A DNA stretch of 64,000 nucleotides, taken from Escherichia phage vB_EcoM_WFbE185. Below are positions 539-16,086 of the stretch, piece by piece. Numbering within the stretch: the stretch's first letter is position 1; each line of letters opens with the position of its first letter. A program made the position numbers and the translations under genes. The stretch is taken from sequence record MK373778.1; one strand, written 5' to 3'. The notes beneath the pieces were generated by a model. The model was not told where the DNA came from. It was given only the letters and a program-made list of their open reading frames with translations, and made no database searches.

Positions 539-544
539 TTTTCC

Positions 545-985: not shown

Positions 986-1015
986 ATAGTATCAAAGTCC
1001 TTGGAGGAAGTAAAC
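986..1015 (-). promoter_or_regulatory. early promoter (-35 GTTTAC, -10 TACTAT) for denV
   Basis: minus-strand GTTTACttcctccaaggactttgaTACTAT then leader with GGAGG before denV ATG. Confidence 0.5.
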
Positions 1016-1016
1016 A

Positions 1017-1298
1017 CTATTTTTCTGAAGCGCCTGAAATATATTTTTCAAGACGTTGTTTCATTAGCGAGCCGTTCTTAGCGATTTCTTCCGGTTTATC
1101 GCACATACGTAACAAGGCTTCAAGCTTAGCGATATCGCTGGTACGTTCAAATTTGCGAGTATCTATCTTACTAGCAAGTTCAGAAATACGTGCTAATAGA
1201 CTTTCGGCTTCAACCAAAGCTGCACCTAGCTTAGTTGCAAATGTGTCGGTAGCTTCGTTAAGAATAGATTCTGATAAAAATTCACTATATGTTTTCAT
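1017..1298 (-). CDS. internal head protein-like, leader [10 protein letters not shown]
   Basis: ORF track 1017..1313; likely start at in-frame ATG 1298 giving [10 protein letters not shown]; ATGA overlap with lysozyme stop. Confidence 0.65.
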
Positions 1299-1783
1299 AT
1301 ATACGCTTTCCAAGTTCCTGTTTTAAATGTTGAGATTACGCGTTTCGCGCGATTAGGTGTCTGACGATACCATTTAGATTGGGCTAAATTTACTGCCGCT
1401 TCGTCCCAACGTTTCTGTTGAAGCATACGAAGAGAATTAGTAAAACCGGAGACGCCTGCTACACCCATTTGGAAGACCATATTGACCAATGCACATCGAC
1501 GAACCGCATCTAAAGAATCGTATACCGGTTTAAGTTTAGCATTACCCAAGATTCCGCGAACGGCTTTATCAACGTCTTCATTAAATAGCTTTTCAGCCTC
1601 ATCAAGGGTAATTGTACCGTTGCATTTACGTCCGATCATTCTGTCAAGTTCAGCTTTAGCTACGGCTAAAGACGGGTTCTTTGTTACTAAATGGCCTATG
1701 CCAATAGTCCAAAAGCCTTCGGTGTCTTTGTATAAAGTCAGTCTAAGACCTTCGTCATTACGAAGCATTTCAAATATATTCAT
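1295..1783 (-). CDS. e: lysozyme (endolysin, T4 lysozyme family)
   Basis: [15 protein letters not shown]...TGTWKAYI about 85 percent identical to T4 lysozyme as remembered; GGGAGG SD before ATG 1783. Confidence 0.95.
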
Positions 1784-1817
1784 AATACCTCCCACGTTTA
1801 TAGGAGGTATTTATTAC

Positions 1818-2276
1818 TTATAGGAGTGTAGTGAGCACCTTATATAATGATTTGCCCATTACATATTCCCATTGAGAAGGTTTAATTAAAGCGAATGCAT
1901 CAAATTCAGGAATCTGTCGTCCTTCTGGGAATGTATGATAGGAATTACAAACACTGTTTCTGAATTGCTCGTGCTCTACAGGGATGGTATATAGGAACAG
2001 ATGAATATTCTTATTGTCTGAGTAATGATGTTCACCTAGGTCTTTCAGGAAGGCAGGGTCATATTGTGTAAACCCAGTTTCTTCTTCGCATTCACGAATA
2101 GCGGCTTCAATAGGAGATTCACCCGGCTCGACACGTCCTTTAGGAATATCCCACCGATGAGCTAAAGAACCTTTAGGACGAGAACCAGTTACACGCCCCA
2201 TGAATAATTCTTTATCTTCGGTAAGGAAAATAATACCGGCTGATAGTTCTTTCACTTTATTTTTCTTACTCATCAT
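1818..2276 (-). CDS. nudE: Nudix hydrolase
   Basis: Nudix box G-x5-E-x7-REC-EE-TG in ORF; position next to e as T4 e.1. Confidence 0.85.
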   Translation of the reverse strand: MMSKKNKVKELSAGIIFLTEDKELFMGRVTGSRPKGSLAHRWDIPKGRVEPGESPIEAAIRECEEETGFTQYDPAFLKDLGEHHYSDNKNIHLFLYTIPVEHEQFRNSVCNSYHTFPEGRQIPEFDAFALIKPSQWEYVMGKSLYKVLTTLL

Positions 2277-2517
2277 CTCGGTCCCATGATTTGGCCATTA
2301 ATTCGGACATAAATTCTTCAATGCGCGTTTCTTTAGATGGACTTTCACTATTAGAGACCGCAAGTTTGTAATCTGCAATAGGACAGAACATATCAAGGTC
2401 CATATTAAGGTCGTCTTTGATTTTTTCTTCTGACACATCTTTATCGTATGTGTACAGATAACTATCACATGATTCTGATTTAATGTAAATTGCTATACTC
2501 ATCTCAAATTCCTGCAT
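2266..2517 (-). CDS. hypothetical protein
   Basis: ORF track 83 aa; overlaps upstream ORF end, consistent with translational coupling. Confidence 0.6.
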   Translation of the reverse strand: MQEFEMSIAIYIKSESCDSYLYTYDKDVSEEKIKDDLNMDLDMFCPIADYKLAVSNSESPSKETRIEEFMSELMAKSWDRDDE

Positions 2518-2990
2518 TCGGTAATAAAACGTTCAACTTCATTATTCTTGGCCTTTATCTTGTCTTTACGTTCCTGTAAACTACTTTTAACAAGATTAAT
2601 AATGATGCCTACAGTACCTCCACCAATAATACCACCAATAATACTTACGATAGTAGATGCTAATAAGATAGCAATAATATCAACAAAACCGAAAGAACTC
2701 ACCTTAGTACTAAAAAACCATACCGACGGTACAAATATAATCCATCCTGTTATCCATTGGCACTTATTGAAAAACTTTTCAAGCTCAGCTTGAGTTGTTC
2801 GTATTACTTCATCGATAGGTTGATATCCGTTAATGTATCTGTTCACGATAATACCTGCTGGCTGGTCGATTTTAAATTCTTGGCAAATACGTTTAACTAA
2901 GTAGGATGGACATCCTGTCCAATCTACTGAATAGTATGAAATACCTTCGTTGCCATCGTCTATATTAGACCAATATGTTTTGTTAATCAT
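2499..2990 (-). CDS. hypothetical membrane protein (two predicted TM helices), C-terminal FITECR
   Basis: ORF track 163 aa; hydrophobic stretches WIIFVPSVWFF and IIAILLASTIVSIIGGIIGGG. Confidence 0.65.
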   Translation of the reverse strand: MINKTYWSNIDDGNEGISYYSVDWTGCPSYLVKRICQEFKIDQPAGIIVNRYINGYQPIDEVIRTTQAELEKFFNKCQWITGWIIFVPSVWFFSTKVSSFGFVDIIAILLASTIVSIIGGIIGGGTVGIIINLVKSSLQERKDKIKAKNNEVERFITECRNLR

Positions 2991-3676
2991 TACCAGCCTT
3001 CCATAGGGAATTCCAGATAAACTTGAGCATTGACACGAATTTCATTGGTAATCTTTTTAACTCGGTCTGTATTACGAGATACACGTCCGAACCAACGCCA
3101 TCCGTTACTAATTGCACGAGAACCAGTGTGCCATGTTTGCCAATCAAACTGAAGAAGAGTACGATCTGGAGCTTCCCATTTCTCTAGTTCACCTTTTTCA
3201 ATTTTTTCGAGGACTTCTTTGTGCCACTGGCGATAGATAAGTTCGCCATCAGGAATCTGACTGAACTCTGCAGTTCCTGTTGCAAAATGAGTAGGACACA
3301 CGTCAGCGTTAACAAGACCAAGAATGTGTTCAGACAAATAGCGAGGATTGTCATAATCAGGTTGTCCTGCAGTAATAAAGTGTTGACCTACCGGAATATC
3401 CGGGCGTGGTACATCGTCATGGTGATAACCTGGGATAGCAGGGTACCAACCAGGCATCAGCATGTGGACTCGTGAATCAAATACAACCTGATCGGTGTTC
3501 CAATCATCTGGCAAGTTCATGATGAAGCTGCGAGTAATAGGACCGCCGTTATTATAAGCAAATTCTAAACTACAGTTGAAGAACATAGGCTCGTTTTTAA
3601 TCTGCTCGTTTTTAATCGCATGAGCAAAACCACCTACTGCACGAGCTTGACTATTAAACACTTTAGAACTATTCAT
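2990..3676 (-). CDS. hypothetical protein
   Basis: ORF track 228 aa; ATG preceded by GAGGA. Confidence 0.7.
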   Translation of the reverse strand: MNSSKVFNSQARAVGGFAHAIKNEQIKNEPMFFNCSLEFAYNNGGPITRSFIMNLPDDWNTDQVVFDSRVHMLMPGWYPAIPGYHHDDVPRPDIPVGQHFITAGQPDYDNPRYLSEHILGLVNADVCPTHFATGTAEFSQIPDGELIYRQWHKEVLEKIEKGELEKWEAPDRTLLQFDWQTWHTGSRAISNGWRWFGRVSRNTDRVKKITNEIRVNAQVYLEFPMEGW

Positions 3677-3677
3677 A

Positions 3678-3983
3678 TTATTTTCCTCGACATTCTTTAA
3701 TGAAATTTTCTAGATTGGTAGATTCAATAGCTTTTTTACGAGCTTCTGCGTGTTCTTCTTCAGACAATTTACGTTTATAATTGACCCAGACATTATGGTC
3801 TAAACCGGTCGTGGCATATAATATCAAAGCTCCGACGAATAATAAAAACGGTGATAAAAATATACAACCAGGAACACCATCCATACTGTAAGCCTTTTGT
3901 AATACTGCAACAGAAAGAGCTGCGTAAAAAAGTGATGCAAATATTGTAAAAAGACCAATTCGGTTGGTTTCGCCTAATTTCAT
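3678..3983 (-). CDS. hypothetical small membrane protein, C-terminal FIKECR
   Basis: ORF track 101 aa; two hydrophobic helices; own early promoter. Confidence 0.7.
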   Translation of the reverse strand: MKLGETNRIGLFTIFASLFYAALSVAVLQKAYSMDGVPGCIFLSPFLLFVGALILYATTGLDHNVWVNYKRKLSEEEHAEARKKAIESTNLENFIKECRGK

Positions 3984-4011
3984 AATATTCTCCTCATGTT
4001 TTAATAGGACT

Positions 4012-4041
4012 ACTATAACATAGCCCTATAATTGTGTAAAC
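4012..4041 (-). promoter_or_regulatory. early promoter cassette (-35 GTTTAC, -10 TATAGT inside ataggact/agtcctat palindrome)
   Basis: minus GTTTACacaattatagggctatgtTATAGT, leader with GAGGAG before ATG 3983. Confidence 0.55.
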
Positions 4042-4053
4042 AGTTTTGTGAAG

Positions 4054-5010
4054 TTATTTGAAAGGTTTTACCATATGGAAATTTTGTTTGAAACGTTTTA
4101 CGTAATCGTCATGTCCTAAGCTTTGGTACATACTTACAACTTTGCTGTAGTTTTCCCAGGCGTATTCACGGAACCAACCGGAGGTGATGCTTGTGCAGAC
4201 TTTTTCTAATGCCATCATGAAACTGGCTTCAGGGTTAATTTTAAAGTCATTAGGAATCTGAGAACGTTCTAATGCTAGTACACATGATTCTTCATATACA
4301 CCGGCCAATTTGACCATTTCTGGTAACGATTCGAACTTCTCGCGTGAGGTCATGACTTCAGAACCGTCTTTCATATAAAATGTATACGCTGGGCGGTCTG
4401 TTAGCGCAATGGCTTCGTGAATAGTGTCATGGTCATATGTATAGATGTCATCTTTAAAGAACGCACTTTTAGAAGTGTCAAGAACTGGGTGAGCATAGTT
4501 CAAGGTTTCTTTCTGGCGTTTCAGCATAATTTCAGTAAGTTCATCGTTCAGTGTAACACCTTTACCACGAAGATACTGAATATGGTTCATAGTCTTTAAA
4601 AAGAATGGATTATTTTTCTTGAAACGATGAGACATCTTAATTGCAAGGCACATCTCAGGAGTCGCCCAGTAAAACCCGTTCAAACGGTCTTTAGACAAAT
4701 TTTTCTTGGCGTATTTTAAAAGGTCATAAGAAGACGTGAAATCTTCAGGAGTGAGTTCACCTACTAATTCACGGACATTAGTGATTGCCGGAACAATATA
4801 TGCTTCAAAATGAGTTTCGCGTCCATTATGGAAGCATTTGAAAACTTGGACATCAGGGTTATCTTGGTGAACATATACACCCATCATTTGATTTTTGAAT
4901 GCATTCCAAGAACATTGGTCCGCAATAAAGTCCCAATCACTATTTTTGATAGCGCTAGAATCAATAAGACCGTGATAGTGAAGTGCACGAGAACCAATAA
5001 CTAACATCAT
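4054..5010 (-). CDS. hypothetical protein, possible nucleotidyltransferase fold
   Basis: ORF track 318 aa; N-terminal IGSRALHYHGL...SDWDFIAD resembles GS...DxD of Pol-beta-type NTases (weak). Confidence 0.7.
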   Translation of the reverse strand: MMLVIGSRALHYHGLIDSSAIKNSDWDFIADQCSWNAFKNQMMGVYVHQDNPDVQVFKCFHNGRETHFEAYIVPAITNVRELVGELTPEDFTSSYDLLKYAKKNLSKDRLNGFYWATPEMCLAIKMSHRFKKNNPFFLKTMNHIQYLRGKGVTLNDELTEIMLKRQKETLNYAHPVLDTSKSAFFKDDIYTYDHDTIHEAIALTDRPAYTFYMKDGSEVMTSREKFESLPEMVKLAGVYEESCVLALERSQIPNDFKINPEASFMMALEKVCTSITSGWFREYAWENYSKVVSMYQSLGHDDYVKRFKQNFHMVKPFK

Positions 5011-5038
5011 AATATTTTCCTCGGATTAATTCATTAAC

Positions 5039-5278
5039 TTAAATTTCACGACATGCGATATTATATTCATCCCAGAGGTCAACATGTGAAGCCTCTACCA
5101 ATGGAACGATTGTACCGTTTATGTCTTCATTATAAGGGCAAATTGTACAGTGCGCATCTTCGAATCGGATGCCTTTATGTTCAGATTTTTTATAACGCAT
5201 ATCGAATATCTTTGCAAACTTTTCACGACTAATAGTTTTAGCAACTACTTCAGTTCCGATACTTTCGTAATAAATCAT
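5039..5278 (-). CDS. hypothetical protein
   Basis: ORF track 5039..5290; second ATG (MIYYES) has GGAG SD, first does not. Confidence 0.6.
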   Translation of the reverse strand: MIYYESIGTEVVAKTISREKFAKIFDMRYKKSEHKGIRFEDAHCTICPYNEDINGTIVPLVEASHVDLWDEYNIACREI

Positions 5279-5306
5279 TGTGGACTCCATTTAATTTGAT
5301 AGGACT

Positions 5307-5336
5307 ACTATAACATAGCCCTATCTTGTTGTAAAC
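5307..5336 (-). promoter_or_regulatory. early promoter cassette (GTTTAC / TATAGT in palindrome)
   Basis: same gataggactactataacatagccctatc cassette as at 4000. Confidence 0.55.
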
Positions 5337-5340
5337 TGTT

Positions 5341-5538
5341 TTAGCAAGAATAACTAGATGATACCCAGCCTTGAACAGTAATACTATTGTGGGATAATGA
5401 GATCGCGTCCTGGAGATTCAGACCTGCGTTATCTTCAATCCATAATGTAACTTCTTCGCGTTCTTCTGTTGCAATCTGGAACAGGTTTTCCAGAGCAGCT
5501 ACTGCGGTACGCACAGCACAATCTAATTCACGAGACAT
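5341..5538 (-). CDS. hypothetical protein, paralog family member (C-terminal GWVSSSYSC)
   Basis: ORF track 65 aa. Confidence 0.6.
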   Translation of the reverse strand: MSRELDCAVRTAVAALENLFQIATEEREEVTLWIEDNAGLNLQDAISLSHNSITVQGWVSSSYSC

Positions 5539-5547
5539 ATTGTTTCC

Positions 5548-5820
5548 TTAACAAGTGTGAGAAGATGCGACCCAACCACCAGTTTCGAGGCTCAAGTTGT
5601 AGTCGTATTGGTAAACGTCAGCCCATTCAGCATAGCCGTTTTTTGTACAACGTTCAAGATCAGCTTTAAGATGTCCGGGTGAATGATAGGTTCCACCCAT
5701 ACCATAAGCTGGGTACAAGTTGAATGTTGTGTTTTGTTTATCGGCAATTTCTTTGGCAGCCTCAATAGCTGCATAGATTTTTGCTACAGCTTCAGCCAGT
5801 TCGGTTTGTTCTTTAGACAT
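5548..5820 (-). CDS. hypothetical protein, paralog family member (C-terminal GWVASSHTC)
   Basis: ORF track 90 aa. Confidence 0.65.
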   Translation of the reverse strand: MSKEQTELAEAVAKIYAAIEAAKEIADKQNTTFNLYPAYGMGGTYHSPGHLKADLERCTKNGYAEWADVYQYDYNLSLETGGWVASSHTC

Positions 5821-5829
5821 AATGATTCC

Positions 5830-6135
5830 TTAGCACAACGCAGAAGACGAAACCCAAGCACCTTCAGTAATAACGTAACCATTACCTTCACGCTTAACAT
5901 CGCCACCATTATTTTCAATTTCATCTTTCATCCACTGGGATACGATTTCACCCTTAGGATAATAAGTACGACCGCTACCATAATCACCTACAGAAAATGA
6001 TACGGCATATTGGTCTGCGATCTTTGTTGCTTCTTCTTCGATACGTTCAGCTTGATTCAGAAGTTTATAAATTGCATCTGAAGCGGATTTGGCATCATTA
6101 AACTCTGGTACTTTAATTTCAATAATCTTACTCAT
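5830..6135 (-). CDS. hypothetical protein, paralog family member (C-terminal AWVSSSALC)
   Basis: ORF track 101 aa. Confidence 0.65.
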   Translation of the reverse strand: MSKIIEIKVPEFNDAKSASDAIYKLLNQAERIEEEATKIADQYAVSFSVGDYGSGRTYYPKGEIVSQWMKDEIENNGGDVKREGNGYVITEGAWVSSSALC

Positions 6136-6205
6136 TTTCTACATTCCTTAATAAAGTTTTCGATTGTTTCATTTTCACGTTTAGCTAGGAGTTCATTATA
6201 ACTAT

Positions 6206-6490
6206 TCATTTGAGAAGCGTAAACCCTTTTATTTTCTTGTTATGGTTTATAAAATCGTAGTAAAAATAGACTACAGTACAAAATGATGCGATTGATGCAA
6301 AGGCTTGAGTATATCGTAAGTCCTGCCACTGGTCTGTGAATCCACCAGTGTTCCCTATAAATCCTAACACAACGCCGTCAATAAGAAATCCAACTAATCC
6401 AAAGGCAAATCCCATGCCAATACTCATAATAAAAATTAGAATGTTCTCACCAAGAGAAGGCCATACGGTTAAGAGTTGAGGCTTTTGCAT
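6206..6490 (-). CDS. hypothetical small membrane protein
   Basis: ORF track 94 aa; hydrophobic core ILIFIMSIGMGFAFGLVGFLIDGVVLGFIG; start overlaps upstream ORF. Confidence 0.6.
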   Translation of the reverse strand: MQKPQLLTVWPSLGENILIFIMSIGMGFAFGLVGFLIDGVVLGFIGNTGGFTDQWQDLRYTQAFASIASFCTVVYFYYDFINHNKKIKGFTLLK

Positions 6491-6864
6491 CTTATTTCCT
6501 TAACGAATTCCATAGCTTCTTCATATTCATACTTTTTAACAGCTTCATCATACTGAGCTTGGGCTTTTGCGCACTGAACTTTCCATTCTCTTAATCGGGC
6601 TCTGTGATGACGGCCTTGGTGCCAATATCCTGCCCAATTAATAGGCATTAATAAAAATGGTACAATAAGTGGGGCGACGAACATTAATGAAAATGCTGCA
6701 TCAGACGATATAACTTTACTAGAATCTAAAACAGCTCCTATAATCATAAAGATTAAAAATGCTAAAGCTAAAATAGGGCCAAATAGTACTTCGTTTGGGA
6801 TTAATTTACGTTTGTATTCGTATGCCCAGGGCTTAATTGGCATGTACAGGGTTGGCTTTGACAT
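6469..6864 (-). CDS. hypothetical membrane protein, C-terminal EFVKEIRC
   Basis: ORF track 6469..6894 begins with TTG; first ATG at 6864 (MSKPTLY); two hydrophobic helices. Confidence 0.6.
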   Translation of the reverse strand: MSKPTLYMPIKPWAYEYKRKLIPNEVLFGPILALAFLIFMIIGAVLDSSKVISSDAAFSLMFVAPLIVPFLLMPINWAGYWHQGRHHRARLREWKVQCAKAQAQYDEAVKKYEYEEAMEFVKEIRCKSLNS

Positions 6865-7435
6865 ATTCTCTACATTCCATAATAAATTGCTCAAGGATTA
6901 AATTGTTAGTGAAATTAGGACTAACAACCATAGTTTCATAAAGCGCATCAATAGCACTTAAAGCATCAACTCTTTTAAGCAAAGGCTTGCCTTCATACAT
7001 AGTTTCAGAATCAACGATTAACGTAAAGTAATATTTTTTATTATCGACTAGAACTTCTGTGTCGATATAAAACATATTAGACCTCAGAAGCTTATCTCTA
7101 AAACCATAATAATCTTCTGAACGTTCGCTGATATATTCCCATTCAGTGTTTAAACAACAAACAGACCACGTAGGAGAAACGAAATCAGTGAATCTAATAT
7201 CATGGTCTGCAACTAGTTTAGCAATAGCTCCGATATCATGAATCATAATACCTGGGGCTAATAAAGATTTTCTGCTATGGCTAGCCGTTTTCTCAGTGGT
7301 CTCATAAGAAGCTGACCAGTACCATTTACGTCCGGTTGCAACATATCGTAATGAATCAACTAAAGACGTAGGTGGATTTACCTTATCTCGGAACTCTTCG
7401 AACATTGAGTCAATATCATTATTTTGGTTTCGCAT
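6833..7435 (-). CDS. hypothetical protein, C-terminal FIMECR
   Basis: ORF track 6833..7456 begins with TTG; ATG at 7435 preceded by AAAGGAG. Confidence 0.7.
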   Translation of the reverse strand: MRNQNNDIDSMFEEFRDKVNPPTSLVDSLRYVATGRKWYWSASYETTEKTASHSRKSLLAPGIMIHDIGAIAKLVADHDIRFTDFVSPTWSVCCLNTEWEYISERSEDYYGFRDKLLRSNMFYIDTEVLVDNKKYYFTLIVDSETMYEGKPLLKRVDALSAIDALYETMVVSPNFTNNLILEQFIMECREYVKANPVHAN

Positions 7436-7458
7436 GTTAACTCCTTTATTATCCAAAA

Positions 7459-7476
7459 GGAGGACCGGAGTCCTCC
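7459..7476 (-). terminator. intrinsic terminator hairpin after ORF 7485..8078
   Basis: ggaggaccggagtcctcc stem-loop followed by T-run on minus strand. Confidence 0.5.
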
Positions 7477-7484
7477 GTATTATT

Positions 7485-8078
7485 TTATTTCAAAGAGTTA
7501 ATATATTCTTGTACATCAGCAGAAGTGGTTTCGACACCGGCTAGAGTGCCATTAAACGTTTCAACACGAGTCAGAGTGTCTTCGATATCAACCTTAGTCA
7601 GTGCAGCGATTTCAATTACATCATCGGCTGTAGAGATACCAAGGGCATTGGCTGCTCGAGTTTCACGAATGTATTCGAGTTTGATTGCCAGGTTCTGACG
7701 AGCATCGTCAAGTTCAACCACCTTACGAGCAATTTCAATTCGCATAGCGGCATACCCGTCAGCTTTTGTATTAAGTTGTTCGGCAGTTCGACGATACAGA
7801 AGACCAAGCTTAGCATGCATGGTAACATCTTGTCCTTCGGCCAAGAGCTTACGAATTTCACGTTCCTTAGAAGCGGCTTGCTTATTCTTTTCAATAACAA
7901 GTTCGCGAATACGTTTTTCTTCATTAATAGATTTAACAGAGGCCGTTTTTAGTTCTTTGATTTGGGTAATCAACTTATCTGCAGCTGCGTTATACTGTTC
8001 TTCGACAGTCAGATTTTTAGCCATAGCAGTACCCAGTTTAGTGCGGATGAATTCAACAAGTTTCTTCAGTGTGTTCAT
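7485..8078 (-). CDS. hypothetical coiled-coil protein
   Basis: ORF track 7485..8120; ATG at 8078 (MNTLKKL); charged heptad-like sequence throughout. Confidence 0.7.
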
Positions 8079-8147
8079 ATTATTACCTTTCAATTGGTGG
8101 TTTATTATCCATGAGAGCATTATACTCTGCTCTCAAGAGTTTGTAAA

Positions 8148-8375
8148 TTATTTTTTAATCAAATTGACATAAAACTCTGCGTCTTCGGGGTGCATGCCTT
8201 CGCAGTATTCTTCAACCATGAACTTCTTAACGGCTTCATAAGGACCACTCAGATTAAGCTCAGTTGTCCAGAACTTGGAATCTTGTACTGAATCGATACG
8301 AACTTCAGGGTGACGGTTGCGAATAACTTCTTCTGTGTATTCATAATCAACGACATCAATACTAACTTTAGCCAT
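8148..8375 (-). CDS. hypothetical protein
   Basis: ORF track 75 aa; early promoter cassette and GAGGA upstream. Confidence 0.65.
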   Translation of the reverse strand: MAKVSIDVVDYEYTEEVIRNRHPEVRIDSVQDSKFWTTELNLSGPYEAVKKFMVEEYCEGMHPEDAEFYVNLIKK

Positions 8376-8403
8376 TTTGTTTTCCTCTTGATTTGATAGG
8401 ACT

Positions 8404-8433
8404 ACTATAACATAAACTTACTTAGATGTAAAT
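8404..8433 (-). promoter_or_regulatory. early promoter cassette (ATTTAC / TATAGT in palindrome)
   Basis: gataggactactataacat motif upstream of ORF 8148..8375. Confidence 0.45.
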
Positions 8434-8586
8434 TATTTCAACGTCACCTTTAGCTGCTTTATAACCTTCAGCCCAAGATACAACAGAGTTTTTATCTGAG
8501 GATTCAAATTCAGGCATTGGACTTTCACCAATATTCACACAGTATGTTTCTTCATTTTCATCGAACCAAATAATTAAAGTAGTCAT
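8422..8586 (-). CDS. hypothetical small protein (54 aa), not in ORF track
   Basis: hand translation MTTLIIWFDENEETYCVNIGESPMPEFESSDKNSVVSWAEGYKAAKGDVEIIYI; GAGGAG SD and early promoter upstream. Confidence 0.45.
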   Translation of the reverse strand: MTTLIIWFDENEETYCVNIGESPMPEFESSDKNSVVSWAEGYKAAKGDVEIIYI

Positions 8587-8616
8587 TTTGTTTACTCCTC
8601 TGTAGTTGATAAGTCT

Positions 8617-8646
8617 ATAGTATCACCATCCTTGGTGCTTGTACAT
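8617..8646 (-). promoter_or_regulatory. early promoter (-10 TACTAT, weak -35) with conserved leader agacttatcaactacagagga
   Basis: leader shared with the cassettes at 8989 and 45058. Confidence 0.4.
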
Positions 8647-8654
8647 CGTTATTT

Positions 8655-8960
8655 TTAATTTTTCCAACTTAACAACTTGTAGTGTCCTTCATTCGTACGA
8701 GGTTTATCCCAAGAAATACTAATATATGATTCGCTATCAATAGAAGTCGCCGGGTTTTTCTCTACCGTAAGACCTTCACTTTCCAGCCATTCAATAGTAT
8801 TTGCGCATAAATCTGAAGAACACCTCATCGGAAACCGGCAAGATTTTTCACCTTTAGCTGCAGTGTTATACATCTTTTCTAAAATACGCTTTTGCACGTT
8901 TTTAAAAATAGTTTCAGCAGATTCTTCAGATTTTTTATTCAGTTCAGTGTAAAGACTCAT
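8655..8960 (-). CDS. hypothetical protein
   Basis: ORF track 101 aa; early promoter upstream. Confidence 0.65.
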   Translation of the reverse strand: MSLYTELNKKSEESAETIFKNVQKRILEKMYNTAAKGEKSCRFPMRCSSDLCANTIEWLESEGLTVEKNPATSIDSESYISISWDKPRTNEGHYKLLSWKN

Positions 8961-8988
8961 AATATTTTCCTCTGTAGTTGATAAGTCT

Positions 8989-9017
8989 ATAATATCATGC
9001 CCTTAGAAGAAGTAAAC
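8989..9017 (-). promoter_or_regulatory. early promoter (-35 GTTTAC, 17 nt, -10 TATTAT)
   Basis: minus GTTTACttcttctaagggcatgaTATTAT then conserved leader. Confidence 0.5.
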
Positions 9018-9055
9018 ATCTTTATGAAATATTTTTATGCCCTAGATACCAAAAA

Positions 9056-9077
9056 GCCCCAACCGTAAGGAAGGGGC
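9056..9077 (-). terminator. intrinsic terminator after IP-like gene
   Basis: gccccaaccgtaaggaaggggc hairpin then T-run on minus strand. Confidence 0.6.
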
Positions 9078-9085
9078 ATTCTATA

Positions 9086-9550
9086 TTATTTAATTTGTTT
9101 AGCAGACCAGATACGGTCTTTAATAAGTTTTTGGATATCTTCAACATACTCAAGGCTATGAGCGTGAGGATTATCTTTGAAGCTATGTGCTCGAGCGAGT
9201 TTCTGACCTTCAGTTTTGATTACCAAAAGTTCTTTAAGAATTGCTTCATACTTAGAAATAATTCCTTTGGCGATATTTTTTTCTTGAGCTGCTTTAGGGT
9301 CCGCTTTTGGTGATGGTGCTTTACCTGTAGCTTTCTGGAACAATTCACCTGATGCAGCTAGGCTTTTAAAAACTCGACTAACAGTATTAGCATTAGTAAA
9401 TCCTTCAGCTTTAAAATCTCTAATAAAACGGAAACGTTCTTCATCAGAGGCGTCTTTATAAGAATATTTACCTGCTTGAATTGCTGCAATTGCTGCGGCT
9501 TTTACATCTGAACTAGATTGTTCAGTCAAAAATTCTGCATATGATTTCAT
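9086..9550 (-). CDS. internal head protein-like, leader MKSYAEFLTE
   Basis: ORF track 154 aa; capsid targeting leader; flanked by near-identical hairpins. Confidence 0.7.
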   Translation of the reverse strand: MKSYAEFLTEQSSSDVKAAAIAAIQAGKYSYKDASDEERFRFIRDFKAEGFTNANTVSRVFKSLAASGELFQKATGKAPSPKADPKAAQEKNIAKGIISKYEAILKELLVIKTEGQKLARAHSFKDNPHAHSLEYVEDIQKLIKDRIWSAKQIK

Positions 9551-9594
9551 GTTACTTTTCCTAAGTTAATTAACTTATCTATTTATTATTATGC

Positions 9595-9622
9595 AAAAAA
9601 GCCCCAACCTTTCGGAAGGGGC
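9595..9622 (-). terminator. intrinsic terminator ending the tRNA-region transcript
   Basis: gccccaacctttcggaaggggc hairpin then TTTTTT on minus strand. Confidence 0.55.
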
Positions 9623-9654
9623 TATATACCTTGTCGGGGTCCCACCTGCTAAGG

Positions 9655-9700
9655 CAAGTGTTTGTACGAAACGCCGGGATTCGAACCCGGTTATTAAGCA
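9655..9700 (-). other. tRNA-like 3' element (T-arm plus acceptor-like stem), possible small stable RNA or tRNA remnant
   Basis: minus-strand ccgggTTCGAATcccgg followed by cgtttcg that can pair with cggaacg about 60 nt upstream; no full cloverleaf. Confidence 0.25.
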
Positions 9701-9925
9701 GTTGACGCTACTCAATATTTTTAAAAGGCCATATCTCGTCCATATCCGAACGTTCCGTCAAAAACGCTACTCGGCTTACGGCAAAGATATTTCCTCGAAT
9801 CGATAATTCTGTGCGCCGTTTCTGCTGTGATGTGAGGGGATATTAACAAATCGTAAAGATTTGTTAAGACCAGTCCTTACTCAGGGAACATCAGTCCGAC
9901 GTCTTGCCGGTAGCGACCCGGCTTC

Positions 9926-10270
9926 TTATTTTGGCATATCATCAATTTGCTCTCGACGCCGACGCCATAGATTAATCGCTTCATAGGCACATTCTGCGTT
10001 TGGTATATGACGGCAATAATATAATGATTCGCGTTTCTGGAACCGATGTTGCAACGGGATTTCGTTTAAAAGGTCTTTACGGTCAAAGTATTCAAAACTA
10101 GTTAACCCGGAACGGTTTTTAAGAAACTTCCAATGTCCGAATTCATTTTTAAAATAAACATAATCAGCATGTTGATATAATGAATTAATTAACCTATCGG
10201 AAATAACTGTTTCACGTTCGTTAAAATAAAACGTTAAATCATGAACTACCAGATACACATTGCCTTTCAT
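9926..10270 (-). CDS. hypothetical protein immediately downstream of tRNA-Arg
   Basis: ORF track 9926..10318 extension overlaps the tRNA; ATG at 10270 with GAGGA SD. Confidence 0.55.
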   Translation of the reverse strand: MKGNVYLVVHDLTFYFNERETVISDRLINSLYQHADYVYFKNEFGHWKFLKNRSGLTSFEYFDRKDLLNEIPLQHRFQKRESLYYCRHIPNAECAYEAINLWRRRREQIDDMPK

Positions 10271-10288
10271 ATTTTCCTCACTTGAAGT

Positions 10289-10365
<77 letters not shown>

Positions 10366-10371
10366 AATATA

Positions 10372-10445
10372 TGACCCAGACCAGATTCGAACTGGTAACC
10401 TTTCCCTTATGAGGGGACTGCTGCTAACCATTGAGCTACAGGGCC
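10372..10445 (-). tRNA. tRNA with anticodon CAU (Met or Ile2 type)
   Basis: T-arm ACCAG-TTCGAAT-CTGGT, acceptor GGCCCTG/CTGGGTC with one mismatch, anticodon loop CTCATAA; D and anticodon stems imperfect. Confidence 0.5.
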
Positions 10446-10524
10446 TAAATAACTTTCTATTATGAAAGGCACTTTAGAGCACCTTTGGTAATAGAGGGTA
10501 TGAATTAATAATAACACATAATTC

Positions 10525-11040
10525 TTAAAGCAAATCAATCATTTTAACAGTCGGCAAAACGATTTCTTCTTCAATATAAGCAAATTCAACACATTCAACT
10601 ACACGCAAGAAATCATAATCATAATATTCAGAAGCATGGCCAAGAATATCAATGAGACCTTCTGATACTAAATATCCATTCTCATGGAACAGGTCAAATA
10701 CACGCGATTCGTCTTCTTCAGATTTATTACCAAGGTCGACTTCAATATCAAAGACCTTTTTAATGAATTCTGGATAAAGCTGGTCCGAGAACAATCCTTC
10801 AACCAAGTATTCATAGATTAAAAGCGAGCAATCACTGAATAGTGTATTACCACAGTAACGTTCAGCTTTAGTGCTAGAATGACGACTCTTAAATTTCTTC
10901 AAAAGATATTTAAACTGTTGGAGCTCATGCTCTTCCACACCAAATAATGTTTTGGTTTTATAGTTGTCGCCGTCATTTTCCCAAGTAGTGACATCAATTA
11001 CGTAACCCTTAGGAATTGTACTGCCTAAACAAATATTCAT
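10525..11040 (-). CDS. hypothetical protein
   Basis: ORF track 171 aa. Confidence 0.65.
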   Translation of the reverse strand: MNICLGSTIPKGYVIDVTTWENDGDNYKTKTLFGVEEHELQQFKYLLKKFKSRHSSTKAERYCGNTLFSDCSLLIYEYLVEGLFSDQLYPEFIKKVFDIEVDLGNKSEEDESRVFDLFHENGYLVSEGLIDILGHASEYYDYDFLRVVECVEFAYIEEEIVLPTVKMIDLL

Positions 11041-11044
11041 TTAC

Positions 11045-11335
11045 TCACCGTACCATATTAATGTAATTATATTCAATGCAACGTAATTTCAAAGGATTTT
11101 TGAAAATATCATATTCAAGAGGACCTTTTTCTGTTTCAATAAAGAAATCAAAGTTCACTGTATTAAATTTACGGTCTTCCCATAGTAATTTGACCTGTGA
11201 AGACGAACGGTCGATATAAACCTTTTCAACCTCAAAGTTAGTCAGAATACCGTAGTCGTCAACTAGTGCTTTAGCTGCACGTTGATCGCTTTCATATCCG
11301 TTCTCAATAGATGACACTTTAGCATAAAGAATCAT
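11045..11335 (-). CDS. hypothetical protein
   Basis: ORF track 96 aa; ATGA overlap with upstream ORF. Confidence 0.65.
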   Translation of the reverse strand: MILYAKVSSIENGYESDQRAAKALVDDYGILTNFEVEKVYIDRSSSQVKLLWEDRKFNTVNFDFFIETEKGPLEYDIFKNPLKLRCIEYNYINMVR

Positions 11336-11694
11336 GAATGTTCCACCACTTCAAAGGTGTGAGCATCAACAATATGATACCAGTCAAAATTTTCTTCTGC
11401 GTTTTTATAAATTTCGCGAAGAGCCTCAACGGTTTTTCCTGTAGCAACAAGGTCGTCAATACCACCAAGAGGATAACAGTCGTAACCAGCAAACAGAAGG
11501 AAATTAATAGTTTCTGTAGGTTCTGGATGCAGTGTACCATTGTCATCGACTACTTCAAAGAACATATAACCAGGCGATTTAGATTTAATCCAAGCCCATG
11601 CTTGAGCTGCTGAATCAAATGGTTTGCGTATCAAACGACAATCAGGGTCTTTAGAAGGATTTGCTTCAAAATCCGCATATACGTGATATTTCAT
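11332..11694 (-). CDS. hypothetical protein
   Basis: ORF track 11332..11727; ATG at 11694 (MKYHVY) has AGGTGA SD. Confidence 0.65.
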   Translation of the reverse strand: MKYHVYADFEANPSKDPDCRLIRKPFDSAAQAWAWIKSKSPGYMFFEVVDDNGTLHPEPTETINFLLFAGYDCYPLGGIDDLVATGKTVEALREIYKNAEENFDWYHIVDAHTFEVVEHS

Positions 11695-11695
11695 T

Positions 11696-11902
11696 TTACT
11701 CACCTTTTGCAATTTTATCCATAACAATAGCGATTAAACCGATTAGAAATGCTACTACCAATGAGATAGAATTTTCAGTTGTTGTCAGTAGTCCGCAAAT
11801 GAATCCTACAAACATCGAAAAACTAAAAGCCATTGAAGCAATTACTACAGCAACATTACGAATCAGTTCAGCGCGTTTCATTTTATTTCTCCGTTTACTC
11901 AT
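11696..11902 (-). CDS. hypothetical small membrane protein
   Basis: ORF track 68 aa; hydrophobic stretches; real start may be second ATG at 11881. Confidence 0.55.
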   Translation of the reverse strand: MSKRRNKMKRAELIRNVAVVIASMAFSFSMFVGFICGLLTTTENSISLVVAFLIGLIAIVMDKIAKGE

Positions 11903-11918
11903 TTGTTTTGATAGGACT

Positions 11919-11948
11919 ACTATAACATAGTCCTATCATCATGTAAAC
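11919..11948 (-). promoter_or_regulatory. early promoter cassette (GTTTAC / TATAGT in palindrome)
   Basis: gataggactactataacatagtcctatc. Confidence 0.55.
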
Positions 11949-11950
11949 TA

Positions 11951-12214
11951 TTAAATTCCAGCTTCGCGTTTAACATAATCAACATAAGCTTCGATAGCTT
12001 TCTTGCTGGTAATTTTTACCTGGCCACGTCCATTGCCTTCTTTAGAGTTTTTCTTAACAACTACATTACCATCTTTAACACCCCATACATGGACATAAGT
12101 ACCGATGTTTCGGTCGTAGAACATTGCATGGTCGTTGTTGTAAGAGAATGATTCGTAGTTCTCCGACAGAGTAGAAGATTGAGATTCAGCGATAAATTCT
12201 TTATACGTTTTCAT
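11951..12214 (-). CDS. internal head protein-like, leader MKTYKEFIAE
   Basis: ORF track 87 aa. Confidence 0.7.
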   Translation of the reverse strand: MKTYKEFIAESQSSTLSENYESFSYNNDHAMFYDRNIGTYVHVWGVKDGNVVVKKNSKEGNGRGQVKITSKKAIEAYVDYVKREAGI

Positions 12215-12249
12215 TTGTTTTTCCGTTTGGTTGTTGATTTGATAGGACT

Positions 12250-12279
12250 ACTATAACATAGTCCTATCGGCATGTAAAC
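12250..12279 (-). promoter_or_regulatory. early promoter cassette (GTTTAC / TATAGT in palindrome)
   Basis: gataggactactataacatagtcctatc. Confidence 0.55.
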
Positions 12280-12282
12280 TAC

Positions 12283-12570
12283 TTACAGAAGAGTTTTTGC
12301 AATAATTTTAAGCTGAGCTACAGAAATATGCTTAGCTTTAAACAGTGCAGTCTCTTCGGCCGGAGAGATAACAATAGTAGCGCCGTCTTTCTTAGCAGAC
12401 CATCCGTCCCCTAAGTAAACAGTACCTTTTACTTCTTCACCGTCAACCAGACTAATCATTGGTTTACCCTCACGTCCTTTATTTGCTTTAATAACTTCGG
12501 AAGTAAGGGTTGCTTCGGTTAGAGTAGAAACGTTAGCATCAGGTGATATAAATTCTTTATAGGTTTTCAT
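12283..12570 (-). CDS. internal head protein-like, leader MKTYKEFIS...TLTE
   Basis: ORF track 95 aa. Confidence 0.65.
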   Translation of the reverse strand: MKTYKEFISPDANVSTLTEATLTSEVIKANKGREGKPMISLVDGEEVKGTVYLGDGWSAKKDGATIVISPAEETALFKAKHISVAQLKIIAKTLL

Positions 12571-12604
12571 TTTATTTCCTTGAGGTCGTTTATTTGATAG
12601 AATG

Positions 12605-12634
12605 ATAGTAACACACCATCATCCTTATGTAAAC
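12605..12634 (-). promoter_or_regulatory. early promoter (-35 GTTTAC, -10 TACTAT)
   Basis: minus GTTTACataaggatgatggtgtgtTACTAT. Confidence 0.5.
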
Positions 12635-12647
12635 TGTTTTGTGAAAA

Positions 12648-13333
<686 letters not shown>

Positions 13334-13337
13334 TTTA

Positions 13338-14072
13338 TTACCTTAAGATTGTTTCAATTTTAGAATAAAGCTCTTCTAAAGAGCCGTCGTTTGTAATAAC
13401 TAAATCGCCTTCTTCAATAGGCAACCCAGCTTCTGTAATATGTTTATCGGTGGATTCCGTACCAGAGCGAACCACATGAATAACTGTAGCACCCATCGCT
13501 CTAGCGGTTTCCATTTCATGGACTTGGCGTGTATCGGTTACAACATAGTAATCGAAATCACTTCCAATATAATCCATATAGTTTAATGCAAAAAGCTTAA
13601 CCCAATACATACGGTCAAATAAATTAACGACAACATCCGTACCGAGGGCTTGCATAAGACGGCGGATTGACCATGTGTCGTTGGTATTATTTATAGCTTC
13701 ACGCAGGGCTTCGTATGGTTTAATATCTAGATATGAATACCCACCTTCTAATGATGATAATACTTTAACATTATTAATTGGTAAATATTGACTTTGTAAA
13801 TAAATTAGCGCTTCTTCCATTAATTCAAGAACATCCAACTTATTGATATTTAATGGTGTTTCACGGTCGTATCCAACACCTTCAAAGTATTCATATTTCA
13901 ACTCAGTGAATACATCAGGGTTTTCAGCATGTTTACGTCCCCAGGCTATTGCTAGAGCGTCTTTAATCGGATATGCCAATTGGTATTTTACGGATTTAAA
14001 GTTTGAATTGATGTAATCAGCAGTGGTGTCTTTACCACTACGTTTGATGCCGCTTAAAAAGATTAGCTCCAT
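13338..14072 (-). CDS. 1: deoxynucleoside monophosphate kinase
   Basis: MELIFLSGIKRSGKDTTADY P-loop N-terminus matches T4 gp1; synteny. Confidence 0.9.
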   Translation of the reverse strand: MELIFLSGIKRSGKDTTADYINSNFKSVKYQLAYPIKDALAIAWGRKHAENPDVFTELKYEYFEGVGYDRETPLNINKLDVLELMEEALIYLQSQYLPINNVKVLSSLEGGYSYLDIKPYEALREAINNTNDTWSIRRLMQALGTDVVVNLFDRMYWVKLFALNYMDYIGSDFDYYVVTDTRQVHEMETARAMGATVIHVVRSGTESTDKHITEAGLPIEEGDLVITNDGSLEELYSKIETILR

Positions 14073-14125
14073 AGGTTTTCCTCATATAATTTATGAGTGA
14101 TTATAACATACGGAGCTAGAAGCGA

Positions 14126-14710
14126 TTAACGCAAGGAAGGGTGTCTAGAAATGGATTTAGATTCGGCTGCCTGACGTGGTTGTTGAGATACAATGACTTC
14201 GCCATCCTTTTCTATCGTCATATACGCGTAGTGAATAGTTGCTACGCACGTAACGGCAGGGTCAGAGTCTTCAGTGTAACTAAATTCAATTTCACTCAAA
14301 TCAGAAATCCATGGTTTATAGAAATTTGCCGTCAAAACGACTTCAGTCTTATTGTTGTTTAAAATGTGCAAAGTAACAAACTCAGGACCATCGGAGTGGG
14401 CCGTATTATGTCCGGTTATATAGTTATTAGTGCTGAGCATCCATTTATACATGTTCATCCAGGACGTCATGTCTTCATCAACTATAAATCGTACAACAAA
14501 AGGGTCATATTCAAATGTGGTGCCTGCACGCATTGCACGTCCTAACCCCATTGTGCCTGTCACAGTTTCAACAACAGGAATTCTCACACCTGGCAATGGA
14601 GCCGTTTGGGCATTGAGCACAAAACCCGAAGTTCGTGTACTATCTGGGATATCCACAACAAAGTTTGTTATATTTGTTTGGTTAAAAATCTGTCTCGCTG
14701 GACGAGTCAT
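14126..14710 (-). CDS. 3: gp3 tail completion / sheath stabiliser
   Basis: synteny between genes 1 and 2; ATG at 14710 with GAGGTG SD (ORF track starts 6 nt upstream at GTG). Confidence 0.75.
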   Translation of the reverse strand: MTRPARQIFNQTNITNFVVDIPDSTRTSGFVLNAQTAPLPGVRIPVVETVTGTMGLGRAMRAGTTFEYDPFVVRFIVDEDMTSWMNMYKWMLSTNNYITGHNTAHSDGPEFVTLHILNNNKTEVVLTANFYKPWISDLSEIEFSYTEDSDPAVTCVATIHYAYMTIEKDGEVIVSQQPRQAAESKSISRHPSLR

Positions 14711-14812
14711 AAGCACCTCAAAAACGCTTTAATAAAAATGCAGTATAATGGTTTTAGGTCTCTTCCATTAATCTGGTTCAACAGAATATCAGAAGAACGG
14801 AAGAGAATAGAA

Positions 14813-15634
14813 TTAAGATTTCCAAACAGTATTCGCAGAGAAACGTTTTCCTTTTGACATAAACTGCTGAGTAGGTAACATGATTATGTTAGCCCAGTCT
14901 TTAGGAGCTATTTCTGTTATTGTTCCTCTAATGTGGCCTGGCAGATATGCTTTAATCATTTTGTCAGCACCTTGAAATCCTTTCACCTTGCTCCAGTCTA
15001 TCTTCAACTTTGTGTTATTAGTAATAGTAGTTGTGCTAGCATATTGCTTCAGCAATTCTTCAAGAAACTGTTGACGTGCTTTAGGTGGGATATAGTGCAA
15101 GTTTAATCCATACATCAAATTATGTTTACCTAATCCTAAATAAATAATCAAAGGATATCTGTCCCAATACGGCAGAGTATCTTTATGTTTAGCATCATAC
15201 ACGTAAGTATAAATTTTGCCTGGCGTAGGCTTGACTACTTTATGACCTTTTACACTTTTCTTAATTGTTTCAACAAACCACTTAGATGATTTGTTGTTTA
15301 CTGCTGCGCCTTCATTTCTAATCTTTTCTCGTATTGAACTGCGAAACGAGTTTATCATCAGAAGTTGACGTTCTTGCTTATTGAGTTTATTTTTAGGTTT
15401 AGATTCAAGCGTTTCAATTTTCTGTGCGGTCTTAATAGATGATGCATATCTAGACATTGCAGATGTAAACGACGAGTATTTTATTCCTTTTGATTCTGCA
15501 AATGCTTTTGCAGTGATTCCTTTCTCTTTAGCTTTCTTGTATTCTAATCCTATCTCAATCCATTTTCTTTCATTCATAGACTGAGCAATCTTAGGGGCTT
15601 GTACGCCTTCAGATATAATTTGGAATATGCTCAT
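14813..15634 (-). CDS. 2: gp2 DNA end protector
   Basis: 273 aa, synteny and size as T4 gp2. Confidence 0.85.
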
Positions 15635-15636
15635 AA

Positions 15637-16086
15637 TTACCCCTTGTATCCGAGTTTTCTAAGACCATCTTCGGTTAGAACTCGAAATTTTATATTTCTC
15701 TTTTCTGCGACAGCAGAAGCAGCTTTCCATTTGTCGCAGTTCACAGACCAGGTGTATATTTCATTCATATAACGTTTCTTTGCTGCGGTAGTAAGATTTG
15801 CAGGCTTAATAGGTGGTTGAGTTTCTTTCTTTGGTTTTATTTCTACAAAGAACTCTTGACCTGATGCATCTTTCATCCATATGTCCATATAGTATCGACG
15901 TTTCTTACCTTCAGCATTACAAAAATATGGAATTACTGCTGTTTCACTACCCCATGCAATAATTTCCGGATTTTTATCCAACCATTCGAAAAAGAATTTT
16001 TCCCAGTTTGAACGATACGTTATTTTGGTATGGTCTCCACGGTATTTTTTTAAATTTTTTGGGACCCATTTACCAGAGTAGGCCAT
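15637..16086 (-). CDS. 4: gp4 head completion protein
   Basis: [11 protein letters not shown]... matches T4 gp4; ORF-track N-terminal extension to 16230 crosses the promoter region and is rejected. Confidence 0.9.

Follow-up and report, generated by a model that had tools for sequence, protein, structure and literature searches.

We analyzed a 64,000-nucleotide stretch of Escherichia phage vB_EcoM_WFbE185 (MK373778.1; hereafter the window), which is T4-like coliphage DNA of the RB69 group (Mosigvirus), and found on its minus strand six copies of a 52–66 nt repeat, each a predicted early promoter. In our judgment, these promoter cassettes are likely to be paralogous copies of the compact T-even element that couples an early promoter to a stem-loop (PeSL), filling the ~70-bp gaps between small early genes, with the hairpin acting as an upstream boundary and crossovers taking place at the copies. 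Between positions 3000 and 13000, for which 844 phage records match, the window shares 96.5% identity with Shigella phage JK45. Its genes are arranged as in RB69 (internal-protein genes, denV, e, nudE, e.2 to e.8, frd.3, two tRNAs, trna.2-4, ipI, 57B, 57A, 1, 3, 2, and 4), and the minus strand carries all genes of this order up to ~16.2 kb. For comparison, we scanned the complete JK45 genome for early promoters, which gave 49 predictions, all on the early-gene strand, and used a T4 set of 11 promoters from 60–78 kb. We also aligned 32 distinct cassette copies from the window, JK45, RB69, SA79RD, and IMG/VR; the IMG/VR scans, made with an exact 25-mer (six loci) and an arm-free promoter pattern (eight loci), served only to enlarge this alignment. 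The cassette is present in 208 records, mainly of RB69-like phages.

A repeat search, run independently of any pattern scan, returned a family of six members of 52 nt each, at 3996, 5291, 8388, 11903, 12234, and 12589. Scanning for the 28-nt pattern GATAGGACT-N10-AGTCCTATC, written on the plus strand, gave exact matches at 11910 and 12241, one with a single mismatch at 5298, and one with three mismatches at 4003 (four matches with up to three mismatches, against 0.01 expected from shuffles), and the 18-mer core AGGACTACTATAACATAG occurred five times, once at 8398, against 0.07 expected. The original prediction had placed the palindrome at about 4000, 5300, 8395, 11910, and 12240. It is indeed kept at four of these sites (4004–4029, 5298–5325, 11909–11938, and 12241–12268), but the copy at 8395 retains the 3' arm alone and forms no hairpin (folding z -0.24). 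The six members, with the folding free energies of their hairpins and the genes that they lead, are as follows.

3983–4056, minus strand: cassette copy 1, with the -35 GTTTAC at 4036–4041, the -10 TATAGT at 4012–4017, and a hairpin at 4004–4029 (minus strand; 10 bp, one G.U; -15.2 kcal/mol, z -2.7); it leads the open reading frame (ORF) 3678–3983 (minus strand; ATG 3983, Shine-Dalgarno GAGGAG), a homologue of RB69ORF133c.
5278–5351, minus strand: cassette copy 2, with the -35 at 5331–5336, the -10 at 5307–5312, and a hairpin at 5298–5325 (minus strand; 11 bp, with G.U; -16.0 kcal/mol, z -6.2, 0/200 shuffles as good); it leads ORF 5039–5278 (minus strand; ATG 5278), a homologue of RB69ORF135c.
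8375–8448, minus strand: cassette copy 3, decayed, with the -35 ATTTAC at 8428–8433 and the -10 at 8404–8409, its sole remaining arm being the 3' arm AGTCCTATC (8395–8403); it leads 8148–8375 (minus strand; ATG 8375), the frd.3 homologue.
11881–11963, minus strand: cassette copy 4, with the -35 at 11943–11948, the -10 at 11919–11924, and a hairpin at 11909–11938 (minus strand; 12 bp; -17.5 kcal/mol, z -4.6); it leads 11696–11881 (minus strand; ATG 11881), the trna.4 homologue.
12214–12294, minus strand: cassette copy 5, with the -35 at 12274–12279, the -10 at 12250–12255, and a hairpin at 12241–12268 (minus strand; 11 bp; -17.8 kcal/mol, z -4.2); it leads ORF 11951–12214 (minus strand; ATG 12214), of internal-protein type and beginning MKTYKEFIAE.
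12570–12649, minus strand: the sixth family member, with the -35 at 12629–12634, the -10 TACTAT at 12605–12610, and a different palindrome, GGAUGAUGGUGU/ACUAUCAUUC (hairpin 12599–12625, -13.6 kcal/mol); it leads 12283–12570 (minus strand; ATG 12570), an internal virion protein gene.

Read along the minus strand, the cassette runs from an A-rich tract through GTTTAC, an 18-nt spacer whose last bases are TGT, TATAGT, and AGTCCTATCAAA to the Shine-Dalgarno sequence and ATG. The GTTTAC-N18-TATAGT core, which can equally be written TTTACA-N17-TATAGT, has the 18-nt spacing that had been proposed for this strand, with TGT directly ahead of the -10. The proposed minus-strand ATG with its Shine-Dalgarno sequence is also in place, 28–37 nt past the -10 and preceded by GAGG, GGAG, or GGA. 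At the other end, the stop codon of the upstream gene lies 1–13 nt ahead of the -35. We preferred ATG 5278 and ATG 11881 to the starts of longer ORFs based on gene lengths in RB69. The ORFs led by cassettes have no assigned function or encode internal proteins, and every one of the copies, six in the window and 10 in JK45, lies on the early-gene strand.

From these features, the copies are predicted to be T4-type sigma-70 early promoters, at which host sigma-70 RNA polymerase would initiate immediately upon infection, using the A-rich upstream region, the -35 GTTTAC, the 18-nt spacer with its extended -10 TGT, and the -10 TATAGT. The assignment to this type, made in the original prediction, fits both the data of Nolan et al. 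(2006, PMC1524935) and the T4 early consensus quoted in the SA79RD GenBank record, GTTTAC-N14-gtggTAttaT; a UP-like A tract, the -35 GTTTAC, TGn, and the -10 hexamer are common to the cassette and to T4 and RB69 early promoters. The consensus and the usual spacing predict that transcription starts at the A of CCTATCAAA (near 4005, 5300, 8397, 11912, and 12243), within the 3' arm of the palindrome. According to Nolan et al. (2006, PMC1524935), RB69 early promoters favor C from -3 to -1, which the cassette's ...AGTCCTA(+1) matches. What the T4 early-promoter reviews and logos surveyed do not mention is a dyad joining the spacer to the +1 or leader region (Nolan et al., 2006, PMC1524935; Hinton, 2010, PMC2988021).

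Such a combination has been described elsewhere among T4-type phages as the PeSL, a repeated early promoter with stem-loop that lies between small ORFs and is tied to insertions, deletions, and mini-circles (Arbiol et al., 2010, PMC2839356; Comeau et al., 2014, PMC4122927). Every sequence-level hallmark of a PeSL that we tested was found in the cassette: a sigma-70-type early promoter with an AT-rich region upstream; a stable stem-loop of 10–12 bp overlapping the -10, absent from one of five copies; the start signals of a downstream gene (Shine-Dalgarno sequence and ATG) as its 3' border and the upstream gene's stop codon as its 5' border; genomic repetition, chiefly among small non-essential ORFs of plastic regions; and coincidence with insertions, deletions, and replacements between close relatives. 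The sites fit the promoter-plus-stem-loop concept that the original prediction named and that is published for PeSLs (PMC2839356). As in the cassette, the repeated intergenic unit of the RB49/phi1, T4/PST, and KVP40/nt-1 PeSLs brings together AT-rich sequence upstream, an early promoter of sigma-70 type, a stem-loop, and the Shine-Dalgarno sequence and ATG. PeSL stem-loops lie mostly between the -35 and -10 or over the -10 and include G-T pairs (Arbiol et al., 2010, PMC2839356); the stem over the -10, the G-T pairs, the small-ORF settings, and the coincidence with indels all recur in the cassette. The cassette also agrees with the T4/PST PeSLs, whose promoters follow TTTACW-N17-TAYWAT and whose stems follow AGNA-loop-TCNT (Comeau et al., 2014, PMC4122927), here as AGGA...TCCT. 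There are also differences. The cassette stem is A/U-rich and highly uniform, whereas the RB49 PeSL stem is polyG/polyC; the RB69-like (Mosigvirus) lineage of the cassette lies outside the analyses in the portions of the PeSL papers surveyed; and terminator activity, promoter activity, and mini-circles have been demonstrated for RB49/phi1 PeSLs only.

Comparison with close relatives revealed joints at the cassettes at base-level resolution. Copy 1 is a chimera of the upstream half of one JK45 promoter and the downstream half of the next, with the crossover at or just past the -35; exactly at 4029/4035, the window lacks 274 bp, including a 201-bp ORF, that JK45 and SA79RD hold. RB69 and SA79RD lack window positions 11954–12233 (one ORF and one cassette), with flanking alignments that overlap by 52 bp; the one cassette that these two phages have here is a fusion in which the flank upstream of copy 5 meets the copy 4 leader. 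The corresponding breakpoints fall at 11953 in copy 4, relative to both RB69 and SA79RD, and at 12234 in copy 5. Further joints lie at the promoters at 245, 8148, 9017, and 12605; SA79RD has an extra 307 bp at 185–217 and an extra 291 bp at 8139–8153, and RB69 has an extra 346 bp at 12548–12574 and a replacement starting at 8969. Overall, cassettes make up 5.8% of the 17 kb compared and contain 15 of 33 unique alignment ends from 16 related loci (binomial 1e-10). The adjacent trna.4 region is present in 207 phage records, but only 28 have the ORF that copies 4 and 5 enclose (11951–12214). That cassettes flank variable gene content, which the original prediction suggested checking, is supported by both the insertion and deletion joints and the patchy distribution of this bounded ORF.

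Near-identity between copies over 40–66 nt, and even the shared -35, provide crossover points for homologous recombination, and such crossovers delete, insert, or swap the small ORFs lying between copies. At the level of sequence, the comparison shows recombination at the cassettes, by either deletion or insertion, without giving its direction, and on these alignments the cassettes are recombination-prone promoter modules. The original prediction had gone further and taken each cassette to mark an independently acquired module. That part does not stand: several cassettes lead conserved T4 orthologues (frd.3 and trna.4), and the T4 trna.4 promoter has a diverged version of the cassette hairpin, ATAGGGT/ACCCTAT, so the cassettes are not simply marks of independent acquisition. 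The sharing of the trna.4 hairpin between T4 and RB69-like phages indicates vertical descent.

Internal-protein-type genes, which vary in number among relatives, are part of this variable content. The promoters at 245, 12241, and 12605 head internal-protein-type ORFs with a 5' coding repeat for capsid targeting, and a conserved 5' module of T-even internal-protein genes has been attributed to Repoila et al. (1994), as described in a citing paper. These three sites resemble that module, as it is reported there, in the genes that they head, and the cassette differs from it in also heading genes of other types (RB69ORF133c, RB69ORF135c, frd.3, and trna.4). The coding repeat itself, 30 nt long, specifies the peptide (MKTYxEFI...) that serves for capsid targeting at the N-terminus of internal-protein-type products and occurs at 185–214, 509–538, 1269–1298, 9521–9550, 12185–12214, and 12541–12570; with six copies, the window carries six genes of this type. 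Several breakpoints relative to other phages lie at these repeats. One internal protein, IPI, inhibits a host restriction system (Srikant et al., 2022).

The hairpin is larger than the 9-bp arms and 10-nt loop originally described. In the palindromic cassette, UGAUAGGACUAU and GUAGUCCUAUCA form a stem of 11–12 bp with a closing U.G and a loop of 6 nt (GUUAUA), except that the stem of copy 1 (at 4003) has 10 bp. The loop contains most of the -10, the 5' arm lies within the spacer, and the 3' arm extends from about -8 to +4. Predicted folding energies of the four palindromic copies ranged from -15.2 to -17.8 kcal/mol, and for those at 5298, 11910, and 12241 z was -4.2 to -6.2, with none of 200 shuffles folding as well. 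Across the 32 aligned copies, 89.6% of cells were paired, a value reached by 1 of 500 shuffles, five pairs showed two-sided changes (8 of 500 shuffles), and two alignment positions ran through an A-U, G.U, G-C series. A search of positions 1–17000 against Rfam 15 returned only two tRNAs at gathering score and nothing at the cassettes up to E 1.

Because the predicted start lies inside the 3' arm, transcripts from the cassette itself would lack the 5' arm, and the hairpin would form only in RNA arriving from upstream. The T4 genes e, soc, 49, and I-TevI share this arrangement: their promoters lie inside a stem-loop, so that folding is confined to read-through RNA and the 5' arm is missing from the promoters' own transcripts (Uzan and Miller, 2010, PMC3014915). 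In those genes, however, the promoters are late and the 3' arm holds the ribosome-binding site, whereas the cassette is early and its ribosome-binding site is free. The hairpin's most likely role is to mark where the upstream transcription unit ends, whether by attenuation, by pausing, or by stabilizing 3' ends; it would also prevent pairing between the promoter sequence and the ribosome-binding site downstream, which is open in the folds. By analogy with the RB49 PeSL, whose stem-loop cut expression of a downstream lacZ like a strong terminator (Arbiol et al., 2010, PMC2839356), we consider the hairpin most likely to be a boundary element for upstream transcripts that insulates the leader.

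Other early promoters of the window show that the palindrome is not a peculiarity of the cassette sequence. Sites 245, 986, and 12605 had been taken for variants of the same palindrome, but they are other early promoters: 245 has no dyad, 986 pairs its spacer with the Shine-Dalgarno sequence, and 12605 has a palindrome of its own. The promoters outside the cassette family are as follows.

214–289, minus strand: early promoter of an internal-protein gene (ATG 214), with the -35 at 269–274, the -10 TATAAT at 245–250, and no dyad (duplex -1.8 kcal/mol).
958–1030, minus strand: denV early promoter, with the -35 at 1010–1015 and the -10 TACTAT at 986–991; its spacer TTCCTCCAAG (1000–1009) pairs with CTTGGAGGAA (962–971, minus strand), which includes the Shine-Dalgarno sequence (duplex -18.5 kcal/mol).
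8108–8163, minus strand: early promoter of the e.6 homologue, with ATTTAC at 8143–8148, TATAAT at 8119–8124, and its own palindrome around the -10, unrelated to that of the cassette (hairpin 8108–8138, minus strand; UGAGAGC/GCUCUCA core; -13.9 kcal/mol, z -4.3).
8960–9032, minus strand: early promoter with a spacer complementary to the Shine-Dalgarno sequence (TTCTTCT against AGAGGAA), with the -35 at 9012–9017, the -10 at 8989–8994, and ATG 8960.

Most of the 49 JK45 early promoters likewise have an inverted repeat with its 5' arm in the spacer and its 3' arm beyond the -10, in a sequence specific to each promoter, for example TTGGTACAGGT/ACCTGTACCAA at 133130, GGTGGAGTT/AACTCTACC at 137158, and GAGAGC/GCTCTC at 73074 as against GGGAGC/GCTCCT at 139284. 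Different inverted repeats occupy the same register at 8148 and 12605 in the window, at 133130, 137158, and 139284 in JK45, and at ipI, ipII, e.8, and trna.4 in T4, where the ipII dyad is a perfect 14 bp around the -10 and the other three are 7–9 bp; RB69 early promoters also have different inverted repeats at the equivalent position. In JK45, the duplex between each spacer and its own leader averaged -9.65 kcal/mol, compared with -6.99 ± 0.34 for permuted leaders (z -7.8, 0/20000 permutations). After redundancy was removed by taking one representative from each of 31 spacer clusters, the median z was -4.3 and the worst p 0.007. We had also tried single-linkage clustering over the spacer, -10, and leader; it merged unrelated promoters via their shared consensus and the signal was lost, and spacer-only clustering was used instead. 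The same permutation test gave z -5.5 for T4, -2.9 for the window, and -2.45 for RB69. At the denV, regB, ipI-slot, and trna.4 promoters, the helix is kept between T4 and RB69-like orthologues with a changed sequence; for denV, the T4 orthologue keeps a 10-bp helix of different sequence.

These patterns raise the possibility, which we put forward tentatively, that the cassette is one case of a general, selected design of T-even early promoters in which a 5' arm in the spacer pairs with a 3' arm at +1 or in the leader. RNA folding would then depend on where the transcript starts, and there may be two classes. In a sequestering class, suggested by the modeled folds, the spacer may pair with the Shine-Dalgarno sequence and leave read-through RNA translationally silent; the promoters of regB and denV, both in T4 and in RB69-like phages, would belong here, as would roughly one in four early promoters of JK45. 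In an insulating class, a local hairpin around the -10 may leave the ribosome-binding site open, and it is here that the folding models would place the palindromic cassette. The promoter-embedded inhibitory hairpins named in the 2010 review (PMC3014915) are limited to those of e, soc, 49, I-TevI, and some homing-endonuclease genes, and the general spacer-leader design is not spelled out in the literature that we surveyed, beyond which lies older T4 work that may describe the dyad (e.g., Liebig and Rüger, 1989).

Spacers complementary to the Shine-Dalgarno sequence pair over 7–15 bp with the gene's own ribosome-binding site. They occur in the window at 958–1030 and 8960–9032, in T4 at 62797 (regB) and 65413 (denV), both of which pair with their own Shine-Dalgarno sequences, and in JK45 at 7931, 12761, 13398, 20073, 43473, 54571, 59194, 62847, 133574, and 165890. 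The prediction for this class is that RNA started at the promoter is open to translation and that RNA reading through is closed; between T4 and RB69-like phages, compensatory changes preserve the helix. A third class of promoter has a short stem-loop entirely within the spacer, often with the loop AAGGA (AACCAaggaTGGTT, ACACCaaggaaGGTGT, and CCACAaggatTGTGG), at JK45 8880, 51910, 132045, 140690, and 141874; a subclass with the stem between the -35 and -10 is also described in the PeSL paper.

Several observations weigh against the reading of the cassette as a PeSL with a functional boundary hairpin. The copy at 8395 has a perfect promoter core without the 5' arm, so the hairpin is dispensable there at least. 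Covariation within the cassette family is modest because the copies are close paralogues. With the fixed closing pair excluded, G.U and A.C cells numbered 23 and 16, which does not clearly favor the sense strand, and duplex energies did not differ significantly between sense and antisense; selection at the RNA level is therefore not separated from selection at the DNA level. According to Comeau et al. (2014, PMC4122927), the T4/PST stems sit "just upstream" of the promoter, a placement that, taken literally, the cassette does not share. Finally, the hairpin is followed by an A-rich tail with no U tract and a terminator scan missed the cassettes, which together make a classical intrinsic terminator unlikely.

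That the hairpins are nonetheless rho-independent terminators of the upstream gene is unlikely in our view, even though the SA79RD record (OL960576) labels the homologous hairpins "rho-independent terminator (WebGeSTer)" and the RB49 stem-loop reduced lacZ as noted above. No T or U run follows the stem on either strand, the tails being AAAACAAAT, AAATCAAC, and similar; none of 20 terminator-like matches in 1–17000 lies at a cassette; the true terminators nearby (7459–7476, 9046–9077, and 9591–9622) do have U tracts; and the RB49 stems are G/C-rich, those of the cassette not. The SA79RD labels, at 4496–4532, 6063–6096, 12986–13019, and 13342–13378 (locus L013), are probably mis-annotations of hairpins that have no U tract and overlap early promoters.

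We regard it as improbable that the palindrome has no function of its own and is simply carried along in recently duplicated or gene-converted copies of one strong promoter, or arose as a by-product of quasi-palindrome-templated mutation. The paralogous copies, with identity of up to 100% over 40 nt, the copy that fits the promoter consensus without a 5' arm, and the limited covariation within the family would all suit this explanation. It is at odds with the promoter-specific complementarity, which survives removal of redundancy and holds in T4 with dyads that differ from promoter to promoter, and with the helices of different sequence kept by orthologous T4 and RB69-like promoters.

For the palindromic cassette, a hairpin that gates translation as in T4 e, soc, 49, and I-TevI is very improbable. 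The architecture is real at other promoters, namely denV (986) and 9017 in the window, regB and denV in T4, and 12 of the 49 in JK45, denV among them, where read-through RNA leaves the Shine-Dalgarno core no more than 0.06 unpaired and the promoter's own transcript leaves it 0.35–0.7 unpaired. Within the window, only the denV- and 9017-type promoters sequester the Shine-Dalgarno sequence as those T4 genes do. The 3' arm of the palindromic cassette, by contrast, contains neither the Shine-Dalgarno sequence nor the AUG and stops 10–20 nt short of the former, and we rejected occlusion as its function. Partition-function folds of read-through RNA predict the Shine-Dalgarno core of the cassette family to be 0.5–0.97 unpaired (0.97 at JK45 77070 and 149233), as open as, or more open than, behind shuffled upstream sequence. 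Across all 49 JK45 promoters, Shine-Dalgarno occlusion was bimodal and not significant (p 0.6). The leader of the trna.4 homologue (11881–11948) has GTAAAC directly 5' of its Shine-Dalgarno GGAG, complementary to the -35 GTTTAC of the same promoter, which in read-through RNA would enclose the hairpin in a further helix of 6 bp; in related leaders the sequence is GTAAAT or GTGAAT.

The least credible alternative is that the near-perfect dyad, centered on the -10, is an operator at which a dimeric phage or host protein, which could be the early shut-off factor, binds 9–12 bp half-sites astride the -10 and shuts these early promoters off. Reviews describe the mechanism of early-promoter shut-off in T4 as not understood, which made the operator worth considering. 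It is disfavored because the dyads of different early promoters agree in position and not in sequence, so that there is no common half-site (other early promoters have unrelated palindromes there or pair spacer with Shine-Dalgarno sequence), and further by arm changes that are compensatory or of G.U type and conserve pairing rather than sequence, by the missing half-site at 8395, and by half-site centers ~18–19 bp apart, which on geometric grounds would be a non-integral number of helical turns.

Near the cassettes, the window contains other candidate RNA features. The internal-protein-like ORF 9086–9550 lies between two canonical terminator copies with 84% identity, at 9046–9077 and 9591–9622 (GCCCCTTCC..GGTTGGGGCTTTTTT, minus strand), and the segment replaced in RB69 (8969–9596) ends at one of these terminators. 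Upstream of the terminator on the minus strand, a non-coding stretch at ~9630–9930 contains a tRNA-like T-arm, GGTTCGAATCCCGG, with no call from ARAGORN or Rfam; the counterpart site in T4, which aligns at 91.5% identity, holds the stable RNAs rnaC and rnaD. A G+C-rich perfect hairpin at 7459–7476, GGAGGACCGGAGTCCTCC, separates the homologues of e.5 and e.6; it has T-rich tails on both strands and, by its sequence, looks like a bidirectional terminator.

For annotation, the cassette sites should be labeled early promoters, not rho-independent terminators. The window provides clean, base-level examples of gene modules, internal-protein genes included, that are lost or gained through crossovers in promoter cassettes, and it extends the PeSL model to the RB69 group. 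If the general spacer-leader design is true, the principle known from the four late-promoter cases (e, soc, 49, and I-TevI) would apply to dozens of early genes as well, and start-dependent pairing of spacer and leader would explain insulation among densely packed early genes.

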